This document shows, in pieces, positions 7,113-64,000 of a stretch of DNA of 64,000 bases. The number at the start of each line of letters is the position of its first letter. Positions within the stretch are counted from its first letter, which is position 1. This stretch comes from Alphaproteobacteria bacterium (GTDB taxonomy: Bacteria; Pseudomonadota; Alphaproteobacteria; Rs-D84), in NCBI GenBank assembly GCA_017502865.1, contig JAFVUD010000002.1, positions 7,238-71,237 of the forward strand, given 5' to 3'. The notes beneath the pieces were generated by a model. It ran no database searches. It had not been told where the DNA came from and was given only the letters and a program-made list of their open reading frames with translations. The translations under genes were made by a program, and so were the position numbers.

Positions 7113-7259
7113 CCATATGCCCCCATTGTTCAAATTAGGATTAAGGACAAATTGGGGGTATTCTTATTTCCTTGATTTTTGTATGTAAAAAATGAAATAA
7201 TTATATCAGGTTCTTAGGGAACACACAGAACCATAACAAGCATAAGAAAGGATACAATT

Positions 7260-10099: not shown

Positions 10100-11092
10100 A
10101 TGTCAGATAAAATTGTTTTAACAGGCATTAAACCAACAGGTATGCCGCATTTGGGAAACTATATCGGGGCGTTAAAGCCACTGATTGAACGGTCAAAGCA
10201 ATACAAGACGTTTATGTTCATTGCAGATTTGCATGCACTGAATACTATTCACGACCCAAAAGTCATTCGTGAACACACATACCAGGCGGCCGCAATGATG
10301 ATGGCGTTGGGGGTTGATTTGAATAATGCGGTGTTGTTCCGTCAATCAGATATTGTTGAAATCTATCAACTGAATACTGTGTTGATGAATGTCACGCCAA
10401 AGGGATTGATGAACCGGGCACATTCGTACAAGGCGGCGATGGACAAAAACATTGCAAATGGCACAGATGTTGATGCAGGGGTTAATATGGGGCTGTACAC
10501 ATACCCTATTTTGATGACAGCGGACATTTTACTGTATGATTCTGATATTGTGCCGGTTGGTGCCGACCAAAAGCAGCACGTGGAATTTGCACGTGATATC
10601 GCAGGATACTTTAACCACACATATGGTGAAACATTCAAATTGCCAGAACCTGTTATCGGTGAAGATACGGGTTTAATCCCGGGTCTGGACGGCCGCAAGA
10701 TGAGCAAGTCGTATGACAATACAATTCCATTGCTGGCACCGGAAAAGGAATTAAAGAAGAAAGTGATGCGTATTATCACAGATTCTAAAACACCCGAAGA
10801 ACCAAAAGATCCGGATACTTCGACCATTTATCAATTATACAAACACTTTGCCACAGAAGCGGAAGTTGCCGAATTTGCAGAAATGTTCCGTCGTGGTGGA
10901 ATGGGTTATGGGACCGCAAAAACAATGCTGTTTGAAAAGATGAATGCGGTGTTGGCGGGTCCACGTGCAGAATACGAAAGACTGATGGCGAATCCAGCAG
11001 AAATCGAAGCAGTATTGGCCAATGGTGCAGAACGTGCACGCAGCGTGGCCCAGGCTACGTTCGGTCGGGTAAAGAAAGCAATGCTGGGATAA
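10100..11092 (+). CDS. trpS: Tryptophan--tRNA ligase
   Basis: TGIKPTG.PHLGN, YPILMTADIL, VPVGADQKQH, KMSKS. Confidence 0.97.
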   Translation: MSDKIVLTGIKPTGMPHLGNYIGALKPLIERSKQYKTFMFIADLHALNTIHDPKVIREHTYQAAAMMMALGVDLNNAVLFRQSDIVEIYQLNTVLMNVTPKGLMNRAHSYKAAMDKNIANGTDVDAGVNMGLYTYPILMTADILLYDSDIVPVGADQKQHVEFARDIAGYFNHTYGETFKLPEPVIGEDTGLIPGLDGRKMSKSYDNTIPLLAPEKELKKKVMRIITDSKTPEEPKDPDTSTIYQLYKHFATEAEVAEFAEMFRRGGMGYGTAKTMLFEKMNAVLAGPRAEYERLMANPAEIEAVLANGAERARSVAQATFGRVKKAMLG

Positions 11093-11846: not shown

Positions 11847-12758
11847 ATGAATGATGCGATTGCATATTTTATCGAATATTTAACACAGACAAAAAAGTAT
11901 TCGGCACATACCGCCATTGGATACGAAACAGATGTGCGTGATTTTGTCACGTTCTGTGAACGGTTTAATGGCGGGCCGATTTTCCCAAAAGATTTGGCCC
12001 GCACAGACACATTGATGTTTCGGTCGTATTTGGCCGACCGACAACGGCGTGGTTTGGCACACAAATCGACTGCACGGGCATTGTCTTCGTTGCGGGGATT
12101 CTTTAAATTTATTGCAAAAAATTATGGTATTAAAAACGATGCAATTACACTGATTTCTTCGCCCAAGGTGCCACGAAAATTATCCAAGGCAATTGATCCA
12201 ATTGATGTTGAACATATGCATTCTGCCATTCGGGAAATTGGCAACAAAGACCCATGGATTGATGCACGTGATTGGGCGTTGGTTGTATTGATATTTGGAT
12301 GCGGCCTGCGTATCAGCGAAGCGTTATCACTGAAAAACAGTGATGTGCGTGGCCGACCAGAAGTTCTGCGTATTTGCGGTAAAGGCAATAAAGAACGATT
12401 GGTTCCTGTGTTGCCAGCAGTGTGGGATGCGATTGAAAAATACATTCGTGTGCGACCATTTGGCAATGCCGCCGAAGACGAACTGTTCCGCAGTGTGCGT
12501 GGTCTGCCGATGAGTTCGAGAATGGCTGAAAAAGTTATTGAGAAAATTCGCAATTATTTACAGTTGCCAGACTATGTGACACCGCACGCATTGCGACACA
12601 CATTTGCAACCGCATTGTTGGCGGGGGGTGCAGATTTGCGTACATTACAGGAATTGTTGGGACATTCTTCGTTATCCACCACACAATTATATACCAAAGT
12701 CAATATGGCCGAAATTTCCAACATATATGCAAACGCACATCCACGGGCAAAAGATTAG
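11847..12758 (+). CDS. xerC: Tyrosine recombinase XerC
   Basis: SAHT..Y..D, ARALSSLRGFF, GCGLRISE, GKGNKER, TPHALRHTFAT, QELLGHSSLSTTQLYT, HPRA. Confidence 0.92.
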   Translation: MNDAIAYFIEYLTQTKKYSAHTAIGYETDVRDFVTFCERFNGGPIFPKDLARTDTLMFRSYLADRQRRGLAHKSTARALSSLRGFFKFIAKNYGIKNDAITLISSPKVPRKLSKAIDPIDVEHMHSAIREIGNKDPWIDARDWALVVLIFGCGLRISEALSLKNSDVRGRPEVLRICGKGNKERLVPVLPAVWDAIEKYIRVRPFGNAAEDELFRSVRGLPMSSRMAEKVIEKIRNYLQLPDYVTPHALRHTFATALLAGGADLRTLQELLGHSSLSTTQLYTKVNMAEISNIYANAHPRAKD

Positions 12759-43619: not shown

Positions 43620-43706
43620 TTTTTTGGGGGATTTGTGATATAATTCGGTTATTCGACACCGCCGTGGGGCGGTGTTTTTTTGTTTATAAAATCAAAGGAG
43701 TTCTTT

Positions 43707-44297
43707 ATGTCACGAATTGTTCAAATTAGACGTGGTAATGCCGAAGACAACAATAATTTCACCGGGGCAATTGGTGAATTAACAATGGACACAGATGCCA
43801 AAACCATTCGGGTGCATGATGGGGAAACACTGGGTGGGTTTGCGTTGGCACGTGCCGACCAGGCCGCAGGCGGAAATGATGTTCCAGGTGGTTTTGATAT
43901 TACATCTGTGCCAGATGAATTCTGGGCCGGCACTGTGGAAAAACATACCCCGTGTCCGTTCACGATAATGGAATCGGCCAACATTGCAATTAACCCGAAT
44001 GCCGCCGGGGTGGTGTATAATTTCGAAACTGATTTGCGACCGGTGGTCGTGGATACGATGCTGGTGTGTCAGGTTCCCCAGGCAGGATACACCATTGGTG
44101 ACGAAGTTATGGCATTTGGCATTGGCAATCATTGGCACCCGTGTCCAAATGTTTGGCAAAATGAAAATGGTATTTATGTGCAATTATTCAGTGCCAAACA
44201 GGCTTTCTGGGTTGCCAATAAAACCGATGGAAATGTGACCAATATTACACCTGAAAATTGGGCGATAAAATTCCGAGTTTACGGTTGCAAGTGCTAA
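43707..44297 (+). CDS. Phage tail-fibre/major-tropism-determinant N-terminal-like protein
   Basis: VQIRRG....NNFTGAIGELTMDTD.KTIRVHDG.T.GG..LAR is a typical tail-fibre attachment motif; SD aaggag. Confidence 0.75.
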   Translation: MSRIVQIRRGNAEDNNNFTGAIGELTMDTDAKTIRVHDGETLGGFALARADQAAGGNDVPGGFDITSVPDEFWAGTVEKHTPCPFTIMESANIAINPNAAGVVYNFETDLRPVVVDTMLVCQVPQAGYTIGDEVMAFGIGNHWHPCPNVWQNENGIYVQLFSAKQAFWVANKTDGNVTNITPENWAIKFRVYGCKC

Positions 44298-54518: not shown

Positions 54519-54625
54519 TTGAAAAATTTGGTGGTTTGTGGTATAATACCTGGGTTCAGCGGACGACATTTGGTCGTCTTTTTTATTGCCCGCAATTGCG
54601 GGTGTTTTTTATGGAGATTTTTATT

Positions 54626-55129
54626 ATGAAATTTAGTGAGAATGGTATTAAATGGTTAAAAAAATTGGAAGATTCCGTCGTGGTTCGTGAAAGACACATT
54701 ATCTATGATGATGCCACAGGTAAACCGGTGCCGGTGGGGGTGCCATTGCCGGTGGGTGCAACAATTGGTTATGGGCATTTGATAAAACCGGGTGAAGATT
54801 TTAAAAGCGGAATTACAGAACACCAGGCGGTTGAATTATTACGGTCTGACATAGCCACAGCAGAACGTGCGGTACAAGACAATATTACAGCACAAATGTC
54901 GCAAAACCAATATGATGCACTGGTATCTTTGGCATACAACATTGGTGTGGGTGGTTTTAAAAATTCTACGGTTGTGAAATATATAAACAATCCAAATTTT
55001 CACAGTAATATTTATCCATGTCTGGAATCTGCATGGAAAGCGTGGAAACGAAGCCAGGGGAAAGTATCACAGGGTTTAATCAACCGCAGACAAAAAGAGT
55101 GGGACCTGTATGCCCGGGGGATATACTGA
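54626..55129 (+). CDS. Phage-type lysozyme (GH24)
   Basis: FSENGI..LK.LE, IYDD, TIGYGH, QNQYDALVSLAYNIG, GLINRR..E. Confidence 0.9.
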   Translation: MKFSENGIKWLKKLEDSVVVRERHIIYDDATGKPVPVGVPLPVGATIGYGHLIKPGEDFKSGITEHQAVELLRSDIATAERAVQDNITAQMSQNQYDALVSLAYNIGVGGFKNSTVVKYINNPNFHSNIYPCLESAWKAWKRSQGKVSQGLINRRQKEWDLYARGIY

Positions 55130-55133
55130 TATG

Positions 55134-56432
55134 TTATTTCTTTAATATGTCGCTGGATTTTATATATTCGGGGTCGGTTTTCTTTAATTTCTTTTGTGCC
55201 AGTTTGGCATAGCGATGGGCATCTTTGGTTTTGCCCATCATTTGATAATATTCAGCCATTGCCCAATCGGCACGACCATCGTTTTCATCGTATGCACGTG
55301 CCAATGTCCAATATGTCAATGGGGCTGGTTCGGTCAATAATGCACGTTTACATAATTCAATGGCACGGGGCAAATCATCGGGCCGTCTGCGTTCGGTCAG
55401 TACCAGCGCAAGTGCGGTCTGGATTTGCGGTGCATCGTCCGCCAGGGACAATGATTTTTCGTATGCATCAATACTGGTATCATAATGGCCGAATTGGTAT
55501 TCAATATCGCCCAATAATTCATAAAAATATGGATTGTCGGGGTGGCGTGATATTAATGTGCGTGTTCCAACGCCGGCCCCGGCCAGATTTCCACCACGCA
55601 TATTTGCAATGGCACGGGCATAAATTGCAGGGTCTGATTTATCGGTTGATGGATATTTGATTTTTACATTTTCAAATGTGTCCAGGTATCCAATCAATTT
55701 TGCACGGACCAATTCATAGCGGTCATCACGTGCAGTTGTTGATTTTGGGGTGTAATTTGGGGCATGCTTGGCAATATATTCGGTGGCATTTTTCAATCGT
55801 TCACGTGTCAATGGGTGGTTTATGCGATTTGGATTTATGCGTGATTCCATTGCACCGGTTATTTCATCCATTTGTTCAAAGACAGTTATAAATCCATTTG
55901 GGTTCAGGTTTGATTTTATCATCAAATCAATCCCCAGATTATCTGCAATGCGTTCTTCGTCACGGGAAAATGCCATCATAGACGATGTGGCAACGCCCCC
56001 TGCCCCGGCCAAGACGCCCGCCCCCAGTGATGGATTGCCACCTGCAACCATTAATCCAATCCCCAGTGCCTGAATCAGCATTGTGCGTTTCATTTCGGCA
56101 TCCATACGTGATGATAACTGGGCCATGTGACCGCCGATGGTATGCCCCAATTCGTGTGCGATAACAGATTGAAGTGCATCTGGGTTTTTAATCTGTGTTA
56201 ACAATCTGGTGTTCACAAACACATCTTCGCCACCACGGACGAATGCATTAAAATCGTTATCGTTTATTATATGAACAGACAGACGATCGGGGGCGATATC
56301 TGCGGCATCGGCCAATGGGCGAACCAATTCATACAACAGGCGTTCGGTTTCTGTGTCATTAATCAGGGTTGCCCCCCATGTGGGGACAGAAACAATTATC
56401 GCCATTAAAAATGCAAATATTTTACGCACCAA
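55134..56432 (-). CDS. M48 metalloprotease with TPR (BepA-like)
   Basis: FNAF, VIAHELGH, FSRDEERIAD, HPL. Confidence 0.9.
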   Translation of the reverse strand: MVRKIFAFLMAIIVSVPTWGATLINDTETERLLYELVRPLADAADIAPDRLSVHIINDNDFNAFVRGGEDVFVNTRLLTQIKNPDALQSVIAHELGHTIGGHMAQLSSRMDAEMKRTMLIQALGIGLMVAGGNPSLGAGVLAGAGGVATSSMMAFSRDEERIADNLGIDLMIKSNLNPNGFITVFEQMDEITGAMESRINPNRINHPLTRERLKNATEYIAKHAPNYTPKSTTARDDRYELVRAKLIGYLDTFENVKIKYPSTDKSDPAIYARAIANMRGGNLAGAGVGTRTLISRHPDNPYFYELLGDIEYQFGHYDTSIDAYEKSLSLADDAPQIQTALALVLTERRRPDDLPRAIELCKRALLTEPAPLTYWTLARAYDENDGRADWAMAEYYQMMGKTKDAHRYAKLAQKKLKKTDPEYIKSSDILKK

Positions 56433-58482
56433 AACTTACCCCACGGTCAAACATATACATTAAATCAAATGTCCATGAATCCATTTCATTGTCACGGGCG
56501 GCATTAGATGCCAATTTGAATAAATCACGATGTTCACGATAGTCTGCAAAATGGTAATGCATCCAGCCACTTTGACGTGTCCCCAGCAATTCACCAACGC
56601 CACGCATCATTAAATCCTGTTCGGCGATGACAAAGCCGTCGTCTGTGTCACATAAAATATCTAAACGCTGTAACCCGGTGTCCGACAAATTATGTCCGTA
56701 CAGCAATATACAGAAAGACTGGGTATCGCCACGGCCAACACGTCCACGCAACTGGTGCAGTGCGGCCAGGCCAAATCGTTCGGCGTTTTCAATTACGATG
56801 ATTGATGCACGGGGGACATCAATGCCAACTTCGATAACAGTGGTGGCGACCAGCAGATTCATATTGGAATTGTTGTCTGCAAATTCAGTCATTACATCGT
56901 CACGCAATTTTTTATCCATTTGGCCATGGACCAGGCCAGCATTTGGAAAATATTTGGACAACATTTTATGACGTTCAACGACCGCTGTAATATTGCTGTC
57001 GGGGGCGTCTTCGTTTTCTTCGACCAGGGGGCATATCCAGAAAACCTTGGCCCCGGAAGTAATCTGGGGGGATATGCGGGCAATCAAATCATTGATGCGT
57101 GATACAGATAATTTGGTGGTGCGAATTGGTTTTCGACCGGCGGGCTTTTCATTTATAATCGAAACATCCATATCGCCATAGACCGTCATGGACAATGTGC
57201 GTGGAATCGGCGTTGCAGACAGTGATAACAGGTCGGGGTTTTCGCCCTTGGCCCGCAGGGATTCACGTTGGGCCACGCCAAAGCGATGCTGTTCATCAAT
57301 TATAACCAGCCCCAGGTCTTTGTATTCTACATCGGTGGAAAACAATGCGTGGGTGCCGACAACAATGCGGGTACGCCCCGAACGCAGTGATGTCAATTTT
57401 TCACGACGGGCGACACCTTTGTCACGGCCGGTCAGGATATCACACACAATGCCAATTTTATCGCACATTGGTTTTAATTTTGCAAAGTGCTGCTGGGCCA
57501 ATGTGTCGGTTGGGGCCAGTAATGCGGTACAGGCACCCGTTTCGGCCATACGGACCGCCGCCGCCAGGGCGACAATTGTTTTACCACTGCCAACGTCACC
57601 CTGGACCAGGCGCATCATCGGGACAGGCCGGGCCAGGTCTGCGAATATTTCATCGCATGTGCGTTTCTGGGCGCCGGTCATTTCAAATGGCAGGCACGAC
57701 CAGAATTTATCCATTAAATTATATTTGCGGGCACGTGGTGTGCGGTGGTTGCGAACATCGCTGCGGTTGCGGCGACTGATTGCGATGGCGGATTGGTGTG
57801 CCAATAATTCAAAGTATGCCAATTTCGCCATATATGTTGAATTAGGCAATAAATCATCTGCAGTTGTGGGACAATGGACATGTTGCAGGGCATCGAAAAA
57901 TTCAACAACACGTTCATCGGTTTCGCCACGTAGTTTTTCAGGCAAAACGGCAAAAATCTGGTCACGAACATTGGCAAAGACACGCTGGGTCAAACCTTCG
58001 CCAGATGGATAGATAACCTGAAGCGATGGGATTTTTGATGCGTGGTCCAGGTCTTCGATAAAGTCGGGGTGGCTGATTGTGGGGCGGGATGTGCGTTCCA
58101 GTTTCCCAGACACCATACGCCATTGGCCAACCGGTAATTTTTTCAACCAGTATTCCAGATAATTCACATTAAAAAATTGAATAATAACGGTGCCACCCAT
58201 TTTGTCATTACACATAATCTGGGTCGGGCGACGACGGCCACGAAAGAATCCACCAACCTTGTGCGATTTGACCAGTAATGGAATCGTAATTATATCGCCC
58301 GGTGTCGCATCAGCAATATTTTCAGTAATGTCACGGGCACGGGTATAGGACGGACGGTGCAATAAAAAATCCAGAACACGGCGACCACCCAGAACATCTT
58401 CAAAACGTGAAGCCAATACAGGCCCCACCCCACGAATAAATTGCAGGTCTGTGTTTAGAAAATCTATTAGTGCGTTCTTCAT
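56422..58482 (-). CDS. recG: ATP-dependent DNA helicase RecG
   Basis: QGDVGSGKT, DEQHRFGV, SATPIPRTL, ERFGLAALHQLRGRVGR, DL..RG.GE.LG.RQSG. Confidence 0.97.
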   Translation of the reverse strand: MKNALIDFLNTDLQFIRGVGPVLASRFEDVLGGRRVLDFLLHRPSYTRARDITENIADATPGDIITIPLLVKSHKVGGFFRGRRRPTQIMCNDKMGGTVIIQFFNVNYLEYWLKKLPVGQWRMVSGKLERTSRPTISHPDFIEDLDHASKIPSLQVIYPSGEGLTQRVFANVRDQIFAVLPEKLRGETDERVVEFFDALQHVHCPTTADDLLPNSTYMAKLAYFELLAHQSAIAISRRNRSDVRNHRTPRARKYNLMDKFWSCLPFEMTGAQKRTCDEIFADLARPVPMMRLVQGDVGSGKTIVALAAAVRMAETGACTALLAPTDTLAQQHFAKLKPMCDKIGIVCDILTGRDKGVARREKLTSLRSGRTRIVVGTHALFSTDVEYKDLGLVIIDEQHRFGVAQRESLRAKGENPDLLSLSATPIPRTLSMTVYGDMDVSIINEKPAGRKPIRTTKLSVSRINDLIARISPQITSGAKVFWICPLVEENEDAPDSNITAVVERHKMLSKYFPNAGLVHGQMDKKLRDDVMTEFADNNSNMNLLVATTVIEVGIDVPRASIIVIENAERFGLAALHQLRGRVGRGDTQSFCILLYGHNLSDTGLQRLDILCDTDDGFVIAEQDLMMRGVGELLGTRQSGWMHYHFADYREHRDLFKLASNAARDNEMDSWTFDLMYMFDRGVSFGA

Positions 58483-58534: not shown

Positions 58535-59260
58535 ATGCTTGACAGTGACGGATTGTGTGCCTATTATTGCCCAGAAATGAAAGAAAGATATGATTTTCCG
58601 CCACATATTTGGAATTGGGACACGATGCCAGACGAAGAAGCACGCCATTGGGCACTGTGCGGGACGGTGTCGGGGAAACTGGTTGAAAGATGGAATTTAA
58701 ATTCGCAGCCTGGGGTGGCACCACGGGTGCTGGATCTGGGGTGTGGGATGGGACGCAATTCGTTGGCAATGGCACAAAGCGGAATGGATGTTTATGGGCT
58801 GGACATAGATGAAAAGCCATTGAATACGGCAAAGAATACGGCACGCAAAATGAAACAGGACATTAAATATGTTCAGGGGGATATGCGGGATATGCCATTT
58901 GAAAGTGGCTTTTTCGATGCGGTATTTGCAGATAATATATTAACACTGACGTCACATATGGGGTTGGCACAGACAATGGATGAAATTCACCGCGTATTAA
59001 GATTTGGTGGCGAAGCGTTTATGGTATTCACAGATAAAACGATGCCGGTGTTGCAAAACGGACGAATGGTTGACCAGAATACAATTATGTTAAATGTGCA
59101 GTATGGTTCGCACAGTGCAGTGGCAAATTTTGTTGATGACAACAGTTTGAAAAATGTTTTGCGTGGATTTTCGGTTCTGGATAAAACGGGAAAAATTCAT
59201 GGGTACAATCCAGATATATTTCATCACTTTATTTTAGCGTTAAAAAATAAGCAAAGATAA
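58535..59260 (+). CDS. Class I SAM-dependent methyltransferase (start uncertain)
   Basis: VLDLGCGMGRN, YGLDI, GDMRDMPF..FFD, EIHRVLRFGG. Confidence 0.88.
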   Translation: MLDSDGLCAYYCPEMKERYDFPPHIWNWDTMPDEEARHWALCGTVSGKLVERWNLNSQPGVAPRVLDLGCGMGRNSLAMAQSGMDVYGLDIDEKPLNTAKNTARKMKQDIKYVQGDMRDMPFESGFFDAVFADNILTLTSHMGLAQTMDEIHRVLRFGGEAFMVFTDKTMPVLQNGRMVDQNTIMLNVQYGSHSAVANFVDDNSLKNVLRGFSVLDKTGKIHGYNPDIFHHFILALKNKQR

Positions 59261-59286
59261 AACCGCCCGAAATGGGCGGTGTTTTG

Positions 59287-59544
59287 TTATTTAATGACGG
59301 CGGATTTAATAAGACGAATGTCTTCTTGGATGCCGTCTATTTTTATTTGAATTTGGCCAATACCGGTTTCCAGGACAGTGGTGCGATTTTCCAGCGCAGT
59401 TATGCGATGGTCTGCACGTTCCAGTTCCGCCAGGGATGAATCCTGGCGGGCAACCCAATATATCGCACCAGCAACAAAGGCAATTAAAAACCAACTGTCA
59501 CGCAGGGTGTCCAGAATACCGGCCGGCCCCATTTGTATCGACAT
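59287..59544 (-). CDS. Small TM + coiled-coil protein in phage-like operon
   Basis: WFLIAFVAGAIYWV then heptads RITALENRTTVLE. Confidence 0.7.
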   Translation of the reverse strand: MSIQMGPAGILDTLRDSWFLIAFVAGAIYWVARQDSSLAELERADHRITALENRTTVLETGIGQIQIKIDGIQEDIRLIKSAVIK

Positions 59545-59545
59545 T

Positions 59546-59737
59546 TTAAGGTTCCATTTTTGTTAAGTTTTCTATTTGATGAACCAATGCACGTTGTGAT
59601 TCCAGACTGCGTAATTGGGATTCTGTTGCGTTGGGGCCCAAAACACGTTCTATGGTTATTTTACGCAGGTGGGCCAATACCGCACGACCCGATGGGGTTG
59701 AAAATGTGCGGGCATAGTTTTTAGAAATGTTTTCCAT
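59546..59737 (-). CDS. Bbp19-like phage protein (portal-adjacent)
   Basis: YARTFSTPSGRAVLAHLR...EsQRalV..I pattern typical of the gene after podophage portals. Confidence 0.7.
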   Translation of the reverse strand: MENISKNYARTFSTPSGRAVLAHLRKITIERVLGPNATESQLRSLESQRALVHQIENLTKMEP

Positions 59738-59742
59738 ATTGT

Positions 59743-60972
59743 TTAGATTCCTGATACGCTTTCAATTGCAACCATCTGGGCGATTGGGGCAATGTATTTT
59801 AATTCGGCATCGCTGTGCAATGATATTGGTTCAATCACACCACGGCGGGATAATATCTGCAAACCACGTTCGCATAATGGGCGGATGAATTCGTGCAGCA
59901 ATCGGCCATATGTCGCCCCCAGGATTCGCATCATGTCTGAATTGCGGGCCATAATTTCGGTGGCGGTCATTTCTTTTTCACTTAGCAATCCCAGACGGTC
60001 TGCCAATAATGCATGGCGGATACGTTCACGCAGATCTTTAAGGATAATTTGTGAAACATCAAAGTCTGCACCACTGGCCAATGGGGTCAGGCCAGATGAA
60101 CCGACCGCTTTGGGGATAATCGCACCAGGGGTCAGGTTGATGTTATTCAGGTTGATAACACCATCATCGTCGGCCTGCCATATGCCAGATACGGCGATGG
60201 TTGCATTCTTTAACACCAATTCAACGACTTTGTTCGCGGTTTTTATGTCTGGCAATGCACGCAGCACTGGGCCACGACCGTACAATTCACCAGATACAAC
60301 CGACCAACGGAATATCAGGTATGGATTCGTTTCAAATGTGCCGGTTGCAACGATATTGTTTTCAAATTCACCACCAACATCCAGCCATGCGGTAAAGTCA
60401 CATCCAACCAGACTTTGTACCAAACGCAATGGGGTTTCTGGATTTTGTTTAATCGTATCACGCAGGCCCACCGGTGGTGTCCATGTTGGATATTTGGCCA
60501 TGACTTCGTGGGCGGGCATGGTTGCTGTGTGAAAGACGGCATTCGGTAAAATCGCAATGTCGTTCATCGGGATAGATGTAAATGTAAATGCAGATGATGC
60601 ACCAATTGGATTTTCAGCCATAAACAAACAGGCCGTTCCCAGAACGACTAAATCCATATAGCACTGGTGAATGGTTGTATAAAAATTTGAATCATTCAAA
60701 TTCGCACGCAATGCGTCTGTGGCAATCTGGGCATCGGGTGATTCCAGACTTTCTGGCACCAGATTCAGCCATAATGATTCAGGTGGTGTCAGCAATGTGT
60801 ACAATGATGCCGCCAGATTGTCTGCTGCATCGGCGGCGGTGGCATCAAACAGGGTTGCAGATTCATCATCGGCCGTTGGCATTGTATAGCGGCGGGCCGA
60901 TTCCCATCTGGAAATCCACGGGGCACGAATGTCCAATGCGTGGCGATACATCTGGGGCAAGTTTTGTTGCAT
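59743..60972 (-). CDS. Podovirus-type portal (head-tail connector) protein
   Basis: FDATA, LAASL, SNFY, DLVVLGTA, RW....GELYGRGP, MTATEI, LG..YGRL..E. Confidence 0.9.
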   Translation of the reverse strand: MQQNLPQMYRHALDIRAPWISRWESARRYTMPTADDESATLFDATAADAADNLAASLYTLLTPPESLWLNLVPESLESPDAQIATDALRANLNDSNFYTTIHQCYMDLVVLGTACLFMAENPIGASSAFTFTSIPMNDIAILPNAVFHTATMPAHEVMAKYPTWTPPVGLRDTIKQNPETPLRLVQSLVGCDFTAWLDVGGEFENNIVATGTFETNPYLIFRWSVVSGELYGRGPVLRALPDIKTANKVVELVLKNATIAVSGIWQADDDGVINLNNINLTPGAIIPKAVGSSGLTPLASGADFDVSQIILKDLRERIRHALLADRLGLLSEKEMTATEIMARNSDMMRILGATYGRLLHEFIRPLCERGLQILSRRGVIEPISLHSDAELKYIAPIAQMVAIESVSGI

Positions 60973-60996
60973 ATTAAATACTCCTTTGGTTGTTTT

Positions 60997-61845
60997 TTAG
61001 ATTTGAAAATTTGTATTTGCAGAATATGTGCGGGCGGTTGAACCCAATGGGTGGACGGTTATCGGCGGACATGAAATCGCACCGGCAACCGCATCCAGGC
61101 CATCGTCGTGCCCCACCCCACCCATTGGCGACCAACCCAACATTTCTGAAAACAGTGGGGTGGATGCCAGGTGGGCATGGGCATACAGGTGGCCAGATGA
61201 CAACAATGGTTCAATCGCATCCAAAATGCGGTCTGATTTATTGCGGGTGTTAATAATCTTGTGAACATAGATGTTCGCACCACGATTACTGGCGGCATCA
61301 CGCATAATTTCAGGTAATGCGTTTCCAATGCCGTTCGTTTCGATTGATATACGGCGAATGTTGTGTTGCATCATAAAATCCAGAACCATTTCACACTGGT
61401 GCATTAATGGGTGCGTATCGTTATCGTCAACGTTCATGTACAATATGTCATGAATGAACACATTGCGATTGTGGTCATCACGGTATATCAAAACACACAC
61501 ACTGTCGTCAGATTTGCGGCGACCGCTGGATGGGTCCCAATACATGGAAACGCCTGTTATTAATTGCCCATCCAGCCGGGCAGAATGTAAATCAAACACC
61601 GATTCGTATATTTTTAGCCCACCAGGATCCAAACGAATGCGATCAGGCGGCACAAATTCCAACAGCATTTGTGCAGAAAAGTGCCGGTGACCGACCGATT
61701 GACGCATTGTTTCGATACGACCTGGGGAAAACACTTCGGGCCAGACAGAATTCCCATCGGGGTCCAACACCGGAATCTTTAATGCCCGAAATCCGCCCAA
61801 AAAAGGCGTTGAAAAACGAAAATTTTTATATACTATATTTGACAT
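60997..61845 (-). CDS. Terminase large subunit C-terminal nuclease domain (no ATPase domain)
   Basis: WPE.F, F.AQM, WDPS..D.S, IETNG, K..RI, HDDGLDA; no Walker A/B in ORF. Confidence 0.8.
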   Translation of the reverse strand: MSNIVYKNFRFSTPFLGGFRALKIPVLDPDGNSVWPEVFSPGRIETMRQSVGHRHFSAQMLLEFVPPDRIRLDPGGLKIYESVFDLHSARLDGQLITGVSMYWDPSSGRRKSDDSVCVLIYRDDHNRNVFIHDILYMNVDDNDTHPLMHQCEMVLDFMMQHNIRRISIETNGIGNALPEIMRDAASNRGANIYVHKIINTRNKSDRILDAIEPLLSSGHLYAHAHLASTPLFSEMLGWSPMGGVGHDDGLDAVAGAISCPPITVHPLGSTARTYSANTNFQI

Positions 61846-63412
61846 GGACTTTACTCCCAAAACTTTGCCAACAAATCTTGAAGCAGAACAGGCGATTCTG
61901 GCGGCGGTGTTGATGAACAACCGTGCGTTGGAACGGGTGTCTGAATTTCTGCGGGCGGAACATTTTTCGCATCCTGCACACCAGGAAATTTACAAGTTGG
62001 CCGAACGTCAATTCGCAGCCGGTATCCCATTTGATATTATTACCGCCAAGACATACCTGGAACAGCAGGGAACACTGGAATCTGTGGGCGGGGTCGATTA
62101 TTTGACACAACTGTCCAGTGCCGGTGCAACTGTTGTGAACGTTGAACAGTGGGCACGGTGTGTGTACGAAAACGCACAAAGACGTGATTTGATTAACCTG
62201 GCCCAGGATATTATGGATGGTGCGTTTGTCGAAGATCTGGAAAACCCGGTGACCCGACAAATCGAGATGGCGGAACAAAAACTGTTCGATATGGCGTCCA
62301 AGGGTACGTCCGAACGTGATACAGTTTCTATTGCAACCGCATTGCAGGCCGCATTGGCAGAAGCAGAAACAGCATATAAAGCAGATGGACAATTATCTGG
62401 GTTGACAACAGGGTTGACGGCACTGGACCAATCAATCAGTGGGCTGCACCATTCCGATTTGATTATTATTGCGGGACGTCCAGCGATGGGTAAAACCACA
62501 CTGGCGATGAATATGGCGTTTAATGCCGCAAATGCAATTTATCATGGGCGGGCAAATAAAAATTACAAGGGTGCAGTTATTTTCTTTAGTTTGGAAATGT
62601 CACATTCACAGTTGGCAACACGTGTGCTGTCGTCCCAGGCCAAGATTTCAGCATCGTCTATTCGTGAAGGTAAAATTACAGACGAAGATATGCTGAAACT
62701 GACACAGTACGCAGAAATTATCAGTAAATTACCATTGTGCATCGATGACTATCCAGGGATGAGTGTTCCAATGATGCGAACACGTGCACGTAAAATTGCA
62801 CGTAAATATGGTGGGGTCGCATTGATTGTTGTTGACTATCTGCAATTGATGACATCACCAGGTGGCAAACACAATGACAATCGTGTTCAGGAAATTTCCG
62901 AAATTACCCGTGGACTGAAAATGCTGGCCAAGGAATTGGATGTGCCGGTTATCGCACTGTCCCAGTTGTCACGTAGTGTTGAACAGCGTGATGATAAAAG
63001 ACCACAGTTGGCAGACTTGCGTGAATCTGGTTCTATTGAACAGGACGCTGACATTGTTATGTTCACGTACCGTGAAGAATACTATTTACAGAATCGTAAT
63101 CCGTCTGAACGTATTTCAAATACAACCAACAATGCAATGGTTGAATCATGGCAAAAACGTTATGAACAATCCCGTGGCAAGGCTGATATTATCATTGGCA
63201 AAAACCGTCATGGACGTCCAGAAACAGTACGCACAGCGTTCTTGGGCGATTACAGTTTGTTCGACAATCTGCCAGATGATATGGAAGTGCGTGGGGGCAA
63301 TCCATTTGATGATGCCGCACCACCACCGGTGCCTGCGACCAGTTTGGGTGATGACGAAGTGGCACCAACGCCAATCGACATTGATGAAATCCCAGATGAT
63401 TTGCCATTGTAA
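61844..63412 (+). CDS. dnaB: Replicative DNA helicase
   Basis: AEQAIL, AGRPAMGKT, FSLEM, VDYLQL, ALSQLSR, DLRESGSIEQDAD, KNRHG. Confidence 0.98.
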   Translation: MDFTPKTLPTNLEAEQAILAAVLMNNRALERVSEFLRAEHFSHPAHQEIYKLAERQFAAGIPFDIITAKTYLEQQGTLESVGGVDYLTQLSSAGATVVNVEQWARCVYENAQRRDLINLAQDIMDGAFVEDLENPVTRQIEMAEQKLFDMASKGTSERDTVSIATALQAALAEAETAYKADGQLSGLTTGLTALDQSISGLHHSDLIIIAGRPAMGKTTLAMNMAFNAANAIYHGRANKNYKGAVIFFSLEMSHSQLATRVLSSQAKISASSIREGKITDEDMLKLTQYAEIISKLPLCIDDYPGMSVPMMRTRARKIARKYGGVALIVVDYLQLMTSPGGKHNDNRVQEISEITRGLKMLAKELDVPVIALSQLSRSVEQRDDKRPQLADLRESGSIEQDADIVMFTYREEYYLQNRNPSERISNTTNNAMVESWQKRYEQSRGKADIIIGKNRHGRPETVRTAFLGDYSLFDNLPDDMEVRGGNPFDDAAPPPVPATSLGDDEVAPTPIDIDEIPDDLPL

Positions 63413-63480: not shown

Positions 63481-64000
63481 ATGGCCCAAGAAGAAATTAT
63501 TTTTCCTAATAATATAAGAAATATTCGTTTAGCAAACGGTATGAAGATGACCGAACTGGCCCGCAGGGCTGGACTGTCGCTGTCGGCGGTGTCTAAAATC
63601 GAAAAAGGTGTTCGCCGTTTGAACCAAAAACAATTGCTGAATATTTGTAATATTTTGGGTTGCAAATTGTCTGATATTTTCATCAAAGAATCCGATGATG
63701 TCGCAGGACAATGGCAAAGCGAAATCAAACGCCGTTTGAACGATAACGAAAACAGCGGTTTGAAAATCTTCGGCAGTGGGCTGCGTAAAATCCGCCAGCA
63801 GACCGGTAAAACAATCGCCCAGGCAGCCAAAGATGCCGGAATGACATTGTCGGTTTATCATAAAATCGAAGTCGGTCAACGTGAAGTCTATGAAAACGAA
63901 ATCGAACCATTGGCGAAATCTTTTGCGATGGGCGTTGAAACCATGTTCGATAAAATTGCTAATTTATATAAATCAGGCGAACTGAACAAGCAAATCAGCA
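63481..64000 (+). CDS. Tandem XRE-family HTH regulator (runs off window; not in ORF track)
   Basis: MAQEEIIFPNNIRNIRLANGMKMTELARRAGLSLSAVSKIEKG...LRKIRQQTGKTIAQAAKDAGMTLSVYHKIEVG; SD aaggag. Confidence 0.88.
   Translation, partial: MAQEEIIFPNNIRNIRLANGMKMTELARRAGLSLSAVSKIEKGVRRLNQKQLLNICNILGCKLSDIFIKESDDVAGQWQSEIKRRLNDNENSGLKIFGSGLRKIRQQTGKTIAQAAKDAGMTLSVYHKIEVGQREVYENEIEPLAKSFAMGVETMFDKIANLYKSGELNKQIS

Follow-up and report, generated by a model that had tools for sequence, protein, structure and literature searches.

Our data indicate that four closely spaced genes on the minus strand at positions 59287-61845 of a 64,000-nucleotide stretch of alphaproteobacterial DNA (the window; positions 7,238 to 71,237 of contig JAFVUD010000002.1, assembly GCA_017502865.1) are one arm of a larger set of particle genes, whose second arm lies just outside the window, past the host replicative helicase gene dnaB. 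The two arms together appear to make up a podovirus-derived set of about 14 genes. This set is very probably a domesticated and selectively maintained group of particle genes, and on balance we favor the fuller reading that it is a domesticated, vertically inherited and selectively kept podovirus-type set with a function like that of gene transfer agents (GTAs). [quoted passage not shown] To our knowledge, they are known from only a few independent domestications. GTA-like by genomic criteria, the set described here is probably a new podovirus-type variant of this kind, with a terminase encoded by two genes. An earlier note on this DNA had proposed a GTA, dispersed and derived from a podovirus, or some other machine that forms particles; at the genomic level our results support that proposal.

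The source genome (889 kb in 6 contigs, 78% complete) belongs to Candidatus Enterousia, referred to below as the genus, in the order Rs-D84 of GTDB; named relatives also include other gut Alphaproteobacteria metagenome-assembled genomes. Rs-D84 consists of gut Alphaproteobacteria with genomes below 1 Mb. All members are described as genome-reduced, with a predicted dependence on partners, and the main text of that report, in the part accessible to us, makes no mention of phage or capsid genes (PMC12306168).

The cassette begins next to dnaB with a gene at 60997-61845 (minus strand) for a 282-residue protein that matches terminase families above their cut-offs (PF22530, E 2.3e-7; PF17289, E 2e-5) as well as the phrog_38 profile “terminase large subunit” (E 2.7e-34). 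The last match covers only positions 479-701 of 760, and therefore contains no ATPase part. The earlier note had called this gene an intact terminase nuclease; the nuclease domain is indeed present, but the protein is the C-terminal half, here termed TerL-C, of a large terminase that is split. Next comes a T7/BPP-1-type portal, the head-tail connector, of 409 residues (59743-60972, minus strand; PF12236, E 4.8e-79, profile positions 2-441 of 489), which matches the solved T7 portal structure 6R21 over residues 243-404. In alignments, portals of other families have a C-terminal segment of at least 43 residues and several internal stretches that are missing from those of the genus, which accounts for the shorter-than-typical length that the note had remarked on. 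The portal gene is followed by one for a 63-residue Bbp19-like protein (59546-59737, minus strand; PF25181, E 6.4e-12), with homologues in the block of head genes of Pelagibacter phage Hodr and after the portal gene in related clusters (L098, L100, L112, L113 and L114). The cassette ends with a gene for an 85-residue transmembrane (TM)/coiled-coil protein (59287-59544, minus strand).

To locate the rest of the set, we searched the genome by tblastn with every open reading frame (ORF) of the two closest phages, Hodr and MEP301, and then used Pfam and PHROG profiles. The tblastn search found a cluster at C1:74110-79103, part of a second arm that occupies C1:72412-79529 on the minus strand, ~1.8 kb past dnaB. 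All genes of this arm lie on the minus strand. They encode a SleB-type cell-wall hydrolase (phrog_938, E 5.2e-6; its homologue in family f6 of the order matches PF07486, E 3.9e-7), a T7-type scaffold (PF05396, E 5.6e-8), the major capsid protein (MCP; PF19821, E 2.1e-71), a 76-residue protein (phrog_18004), tail tubular A (PF17212, E 8.2e-5) and tail tubular B (tubB; phrog_376, E 3.3e-80). Between the scaffold and capsid genes lies a gene for a Lys/Ala-rich histone-H1-like protein of 153 residues (C1:77562-78023, equal to L103:8563-9024; PF07382, E 1.2e-14). A 115-residue gp14-like protein stands in the position of T7 gp14, with homologues that match PF24072 below threshold (23.1 and 20 bits, where the cut-off is 27). 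A tail-fiber stub of 193 residues (phrog_1640, E 3e-13) matches only positions 10-120 of fiber profiles, the N-terminal anchor, and a 216-residue protein, TerL-N, matches the ATPase core of large terminases (PF03237, E 1.1e-4). The genome search that the note had suggested, for capsid, scaffold, tubular A and B and terminase ATPase genes, thus found all of them in the second arm. Its observation that no integrase, att site, replication or capsid gene is present held for the first three, whereas the absence of a capsid gene is true of the window only. Taken together, the two arms hold a T7-like structural module comprising a gp8-type portal, a gp9-type scaffold, a capsid protein, gp11/gp12-type tubular proteins and a gp19-type large terminase (TerL). 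The gp14/gp15/gp16 core-ejection set and the full-length fiber of such phages are represented only by the sub-threshold gp14-like protein and the fiber stub.

The large terminase of Rs-D84 is split into two genes, TerL-N and TerL-C. TerL-N aligns with the T7-type terminases 8DGC and 4BIJ over residues 22-214, including Walker A, Walker B and motif III, and its GKS, DDVE and GTP motifs are invariant in 16 sequences. TerL-C is collinear with residue ~225 to the end of the intact, 487-501-residue TerLs of other Alphaproteobacteria, and so comprises the end of the ATPase domain and the RNaseH-like nuclease; residues W103, D104, P105, E169, N171, G172, D247, D248 and D251 (W-D-P, E-x-N-G and D-D-x-x-D) are invariant in 15 sequences. 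A search of solved structures with TerL-C by sequence returned nothing significant. With a profile built from intact terminases and the halves, the ATPase part alone matched T7-type terminases significantly, and stretches in the TerL-C region matched weakly. In the alignment, TerL-N stops just past motif III and TerL-C begins a few residues further on with no sequence lost, and the break falls at the identical alignment column in four Rs-D84 families. The ATPase motifs and acidic nuclease residues of a large terminase are therefore all present, but not on a single polypeptide.

The split is general in the order. Within a single draw of 61 Rs-D84 genomes, TerL-N and TerL-C were each found in 53, and the open frames of matching genomes measured 197-251 residues for TerL-N and 268-412 residues for TerL-C, never ~500; in the four Alphaproteobacteria examined outside Rs-D84, TerL is one ORF of 487-501 residues. 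What separates the halves varies: dnaB, a double-helix-turn-helix (HTH) regulator and a 215-residue ORF in Candidatus Enterousia, and ftsZ and the portal gene in family f3, while at four loci of other Rs-D84 families the halves are adjacent, with gaps of 200-590 nucleotides. We considered and rejected an intron at the split, since Rfam returned only tRNAs in six loci, including the four with adjacent halves, and likewise an intein, as the alignment shows no room for intein halves.

The set is widely conserved in the order. The portal gene was found in 37 of 41 genomes, including all 24 other genus members drawn and 8 of 10 genera, and is 79-87% identical in 80 of 80 genus loci. The MCP gene is present in single copy in 110 of 121 order genomes and 17 of 20 genera, at 64-90% identity (one sequence at 54%). 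At 85% coverage or more, the 80 genus loci contain the portal (80), TerL-C (79), Bbp19 (78), the 85-residue protein (78) and dnaB (76), the shortfalls being mostly due to contig ends. Gene order in these loci is kept: tubB through TerL-N in one arm, then the 215-residue ORF, the HTH regulator and dnaB, then TerL-C, portal, Bbp19 and the 85-residue gene in the other. The divergent start codons of dnaB (61844-63412, plus strand; PF03796, E 2.6e-99, and PF00772, E 1.6e-29) and TerL-C overlap as CATG, and the two starts lie at most 31 nucleotides apart in all 78 genus loci with both genes, with the CATG overlap in 44. Across six families of Rs-D84, the scaffold, capsid, portal, tubular A and B and both terminase halves are kept together; gene order varies among families and gene content is constant.

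We next turn to selection, measured as the ratio of nonsynonymous to synonymous substitution rates (dN/dS; Nei-Gojobori, pairs with dS 0.05-0.8). The portal gene gave 0.041 (23 pairs) against 0.042 for dnaB (21 pairs), TerL-N 0.030, TerL-C 0.112, tubB 0.107, the 85-residue gene 0.040 (38 unsaturated pairs) and Bbp19 0.166; a wider set of pairs gave 0.07-0.24. Protein distances of the set correlate with DnaB distances (r 0.46-0.82), and none of 999 permutations in a Mantel test reached the observed values. The composition of the cassette is ameliorated to that of the host. GAG and CTC are the two rarest of the 64 trinucleotides in the genome relative to expectation (observed/expected 0.22 and 0.21), and the 2559-nucleotide cassette contains 0 GAG and 1 CTC where ~14 and ~12 are expected, so that the shared avoidance reported in the note is real; in the four genes counted between 56422 and 63412, the GAG codon is used 0-1 times and GAA 9-36 times. 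Together, dN/dS values of 0.03-0.17, synteny with dnaB, the Mantel test and GAG/CTC avoidance point to vertical inheritance under purifying selection, as in GTAs. These are the tests that the note had asked for, and the outcomes it had named as fatal to its proposal (patchiness among strains, dN/dS near 1 or pseudogenisation, or no capsid gene in the genome) did not occur.

As in GTAs, genes for replication, integration or excision of the set's own are absent, with no integrase or replication gene beside the arms. The genome encodes only two tyrosine recombinases, of ~300 residues each and the nearer one 47 kb away, which from their size may be XerC/XerD-like. No att-like flanking repeats and no tRNA gene were found in the 15 kb around the locus. 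An inducible prophage would form a single contiguous element that carries an integrase, att sites and modules for replication and lysogeny, which this set does not. Instead, essential host genes interrupt it, dnaB in Enterousia and, in parallel, ftsZ in other families, among them f3 and f5 (L093:11434-13017, L095:11807-13327 and L100:6308-8059). The HK97/RcGTA-type capsid family PF05065 had no match in six Rs-D84 genomes (this one and five others), while a Caulobacter control matched, and the PF19821 set is therefore the only capsid system detected. The T7-type RNA polymerase family PF00940 matched neither five genomes searched nor any control genome. ComEC and DprA are present in five of five genomes, and among 14 control genomes in 10 and 11, respectively.

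The element also occurs outside the Rs-D84 lineage. Among 301 evenly drawn Alphaproteobacteria, 73 had MCP matches (E ≤1e-5), ~50 of them at 50-69% identity; many Azospirillum species are among the named carriers, as are Niveispirillum, Rhodovibrio, Defluviicoccus, Terasakiella and Magnetovibrio. At eight such loci these genes stand together in a single block, in the order portal, Bbp19, scaffold, capsid, small protein, tubular A and B, gp14-like, fiber, intact TerL and hydrolase; at three of the eight, the portal and scaffold genes are not within 10 kb of the capsid gene. These clusters share their gene families with the set in Rs-D84, with capsids 50-69% identical, but differ from it in being contiguous over ~14-17 kb and in carrying an intact 487-501-residue TerL, a longer fiber, a holin, a lysozyme and a ~100-residue ORF before TerL. 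One of them, L114, has a lysozyme, a GTA_holin_3TM holin (PF11351) and a divergent LexA/CI-type S24 repressor; it is flanked by housekeeping genes, and no integrase was seen there. Presence in Azospirillaceae (42 of 61 genomes) is nearly all-or-none by genus, at 9/9, 8/8 and 7/8 against 0/9 and 0/2, with one genus at 5/8. In a capsid tree of 97 sequences, the chromosomal copies form one clade, separated by a long branch from two phages, and genera cluster together. The Rs-D84 sequences group (SH-like approximate likelihood-ratio test (SH-aLRT) 90) within a well-supported clade whose other examined members, G241 and G242, have an intact TerL.

The nearest isolated phages are Hodr (OQ414635, Pelagibacter phage EXVC031P) and MEP301 (MW452941, a Methylophilales phage). 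Hodr has the closest phage capsid (44.9% identity), and portals are 37% (Hodr) and 33% (MEP301) identical. The head-tail order of both matches ours, running portal, Bbp19-like, scaffold, capsid, small protein, tubular A and tubular B, but both are complete ~34-kb phages with early genes, large internal virion proteins, fibers, a small terminase (TerS) and an intact TerL, none of which had a match in this genome. A 5084-bp human faecal record filed as “Bacteriophage sp.” (MT838907.1) has the cluster's gene order, with 64.6% identity in the capsid gene and 41.5% in the portal, and may be a piece of a bacterial cluster that was recorded as phage.

Compared with described GTAs, the set resembles RcGTA and CcGTA of Rhodobacter and Caulobacter in being a host-inherited, selected set of head, tail and packaging genes without replication or integration, in occurring also in reduced genomes, and in that its parts may lie at several loci; the GTA_holin_3TM holin of cluster L114 is a further likeness to RcGTA. 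RcGTA-type elements have been described in Rickettsiales and Holosporaceae (PMC9254644). The parts themselves differ: a T7/BPP-1-type portal, PF19821 capsid, T7-type scaffold, tubular A and B and a split terminase here, and none of the HK97 capsid, prohead protease and siphovirus tail of RcGTA. By its gene families, the viral ancestry of the set is unrelated to that of RcGTA, and it does not belong to the RcGTA type (Rhodogtaviriformidae). BaGTA of Bartonella is likewise alphaproteobacterial, unrelated to RcGTA, vertically conserved and located beside replication-related functions, but the sizes listed for its portal (1863 nucleotides) and terminase (1344 nucleotides) genes differ (Guy et al, 2013; PMC3610622). 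Among published GTAs, FpGTA of Faecalibacterium prausnitzii alone is podovirus-like, and its authors describe it as the first with that morphology (Borodovich et al, 2026; PMC12946183). As described in the accessible part of that report, FpGTA also comes from a gut bacterium, has a near-ubiquitous compact operon for TerL, portal, scaffold and capsid that is probably podovirus-like, and keeps fiber and lysis genes at a second locus (PMC12946183). It differs in belonging to a Firmicutes host and in that particles, ~9 kb of packaged DNA and proteomics have been shown for it, whereas the set here is known from genes alone; the comparison is by description only, and a split terminase is not mentioned in that part of the text (PMC12946183). 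A full-text literature search found no description of this element, of the intact clusters or of a split large terminase, although supplementary files, which lay outside the search, might list such genes.

Other genes in and near the set suggest further parts of the system. The 85-residue protein has an N-terminal hydrophobic stretch followed by a coiled coil, and its matches are all sub-threshold (XhlA, E 0.038; Rz-like spanin, E 0.091); it is probably a lysis or release accessory of an XhlA-, holin- or i-spanin-like kind. Family f6 has a gene for a 95-residue TM/coiled-coil protein in the equivalent slot after Bbp19, followed by a Hydrolase_2 gene. Sequence similarity between the 85-residue protein and this counterpart was undetectable, including by tblastn, and no alignment was obtained with the 110-residue TM/coiled-coil protein of cluster L112. 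On the far side of dnaB, the double-HTH (Cro/CI-type) regulator gene starts at 63481 (plus strand) and continues past the window end at 64000 (full gene L103:1719-2726; 335 residues; PF01381, E 6.4e-20, with two HTH stretches). It is present in 75 of 80 genus loci, with a dN/dS of 0.041, and was not found at the loci of other families. Lying between the terminase halves beside dnaB, it is a candidate regulator of the particle genes; a comparison with the S24 repressor of cluster L114 showed no significant similarity. A scan for promoter-like sites gave no excess (6, against 6.1 in shuffled sequence). The other ORFs between or beside the arms encode lipoate ligase, a methyltransferase and the 215-residue protein, for which the ESM Atlas gave no usable match.

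The cassette is closed by a bidirectional hairpin terminator at 59262-59280, 7 nucleotides past the stop codon of the 85-residue gene, with a stem of 7-8 pairs (6 of them G-C) and a T tract on both strands. On the terminator side follow the methyltransferase gene (58535-59260) and recG (56422-58482), a flank that is not conserved across genus loci. The operon, terminator and flanks all lie where the earlier note had placed them. That note had also pointed to a lone tail-fiber-like gene and a lone lysozyme gene elsewhere in the window, and both domains are real. The first gene (43680-44297, plus strand) encodes a 205-residue protein headed by Mtd_N, the N-terminal domain of the BPP-1 tropism determinant (PF18454, E 4.7e-11). 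Its family is multi-copy, with conserved first ~60 residues and a variable body, and occurs in 36 of 61 order genomes; in ~16 of 80 genus loci an Mtd_N-headed gene starts within ~1 kb past the 85-residue gene (strand judged from hit coordinates only). This pattern suggests that Mtd_N-headed proteins could be exchangeable receptor-binding fiber tips of the particle set. The lysozyme gene (54536-55129, plus strand; Phage_lysozyme, PF00959, E 4.9e-31) is patchy, occurring in 22 of 61 order genomes and 10 of 28 genus genomes, and we rejected it as a fixed part of the system.

We made several further observations at these loci. A stretch of 22-23 nucleotides over the ribosome-binding site and start codon (Met-Ala) is shared by three second-arm genes, upstream of tubB, the 76-residue gene and the Lys/Ala gene (L198:10141-10165, 10992-11016 and 12516-12538), and may be a common translation-initiation signal. 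Three small paralogous genes (C1:80783-81001, C1:125889-126092 and C5:174842-175048) resemble the N-terminal DNA-binding part of the L114 S24 (LexA/CI-type) repressor at 45-51% identity over ~70 residues; one of them lies 1.3 kb from the second arm, with an HTH_26 match just below cut-off. Four other families have a tRNA gene within or beside the phage-derived set (L093:13135-13207, L095:13480-13552, L096:6952-7024 and L097:13189-13261), which could be a relic of the original integration site. In other families the set also includes extra cell-wall enzymes, namely a VgrG3-like C-terminal domain (PF21277, E 4.1e-19; L100:5157-6305) and an M23 peptidase (E 1.9e-9; L098:12367-12894).

These parts suggest how a particle would be made. 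Scaffold and capsid protein would assemble a procapsid on the portal ring, and TerL-N and TerL-C would join non-covalently into a working terminase that pumps in and cuts DNA. Tubular A and B and the fiber stub, perhaps with Mtd_N-headed tips, would close the particle, the TM/coiled-coil protein and the hydrolase would aid release, and the outcome would be a GTA-like particle with host DNA. A broader scenario, which we put forward only tentatively and think doubtful as a whole, would join these threads into an undescribed, ancient second alphaproteobacterial GTA lineage of podovirus ancestry. In Rs-D84 this lineage would have become fixed in cell biology, its two-piece terminase parted by cell-cycle genes (dnaB/ftsZ), and the back-to-back transcription starts of the particle operon and dnaB (at most 31 nucleotides apart, in Enterousia) could let particle firing shut replication, committing the cell to particles.

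Several points weigh against a domesticated, GTA-like set. We infer particle formation, DNA packaging and transfer from genes alone. The tblastn search of this genome with Hodr and MEP301 queries found no gp15/gp16-type ejection proteins, the ~100-residue ORFs that lie upstream of intact TerL genes elsewhere (small-terminase candidates) had no tblastn match in it, and neither did the holin and lysozyme of the intact clusters; the fiber is reduced to a stub, itself present in only 51 of 80 genus loci. Losses also occur: G078, a genus member that is 97% complete, lacks MCP, TerL-N and TerL-C, 11 of 121 order genomes have no MCP match, and TerL-C is found in 0 of 3 genomes of family f6, so the set can be dispensed with and at times decays. 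Synonymous sites are saturated in most genus pairs, which limits the selection test, and since dnaB is physically linked to the cassette, the distance correlation leaves room for co-transfer of the whole segment. ComEC and DprA lend weak support, because they are common families. One gut metatranscriptome contained contigs with near-identical pieces over parts of both arms, covering Bbp19 and the 3′ end of the portal gene, the regulator, TerL-N, the fiber stub, tubular B, the capsid gene and the Lys/Ala gene. These contigs hint weakly at expression and may be carried-over DNA; 10 of 30 bins were uncovered, including the scaffold and hydrolase, which is not readable as silence. The Lys/Ala gene was deepest in the RNA-library contigs, and as it is repetitive, reads of other organisms may contribute.

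The same gaps can be read as signs of a particle that is built but transfers no genes, such as a device for killing or adhesion, a carrier that brings DNA or protein to a partner or host cell, or a route for DNA export. PBSX particles, for example, package DNA and do not deliver it. We think a non-transfer particle unlikely, though ejection proteins, a full fiber and TerS were not found, the genus portal lacks its C-terminal segment, Rs-D84 is predicted to be partner-dependent (PMC12306168), and the FpGTA authors voice a like doubt about their own element (PMC12946183). Against it, selection on each of the two catalytic terminase halves is strong (TerL-N 0.030, TerL-C 0.112), which argues for DNA packaging; ComEC and DprA are kept, and no toxin- or effector-like gene was seen in the set. 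It is also improbable, to a much greater degree, that the genes belong to a selfish element, that is, a defective or satellite-like prophage lineage that co-diverges with its hosts or is mobilized by a helper. Such an element would fit the occurrence of related compact clusters in about one-sixth of the 301 Alphaproteobacteria, the divergent LexA/CI-type S24 repressor of one of them, and the 5-kb “Bacteriophage sp.” record with its 64.6% identical capsid gene. It fits poorly with a set that is interrupted by essential host genes, varies in order and not in content between families, lacks integrase, replication genes and att repeats, and combines a fully ameliorated composition with a dN/dS equal to that of dnaB; the all-or-none presence by genus in Azospirillaceae and the single clade of chromosomal capsid genes, on a long branch from the nearest phages, also speak against it.

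The position of the split terminase beside dnaB or ftsZ, and the different scattering of the set among families, might instead reflect one-by-one co-option for cell functions other than a particle, for instance of the terminase halves as a nuclease or ATPase near dnaB and of the portal as a channel. We give this very little credence: seven structural and packaging parts are kept together across six families, which is hard to explain unless they form one assembly, and loss of one part from a genome tends to go with the loss of several, as in G078. Finally, a decaying, functionless prophage remnant would account for the missing early, replication, ejection and full fiber genes, the split terminase and the loss of parts in some genomes. 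This explanation is already contradicted by the selection and conservation data, and its chances are close to nil: the frames are open and under strong purifying selection despite heavy deletion pressure, catalytic motifs are invariant, and the set is retained order-wide at 64-90% capsid identity.

If the favored reading of a domesticated, GTA-like set is true, it would add another podovirus-like GTA besides FpGTA. The two-gene terminase found across the order offers a natural experiment on how ATPase and nuclease cooperate in a packaging motor, and since Azospirillum and relatives with intact clusters can be cultivated, function is directly testable there. For Rs-D84 itself, this is the only capsid system found in a gut order that has shed most biosynthesis, and it is kept as carefully as the replication helicase. 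Retention of this kind makes a strong case that the particles would pay their way, possibly, for example, through DNA exchange that counters genome decay.

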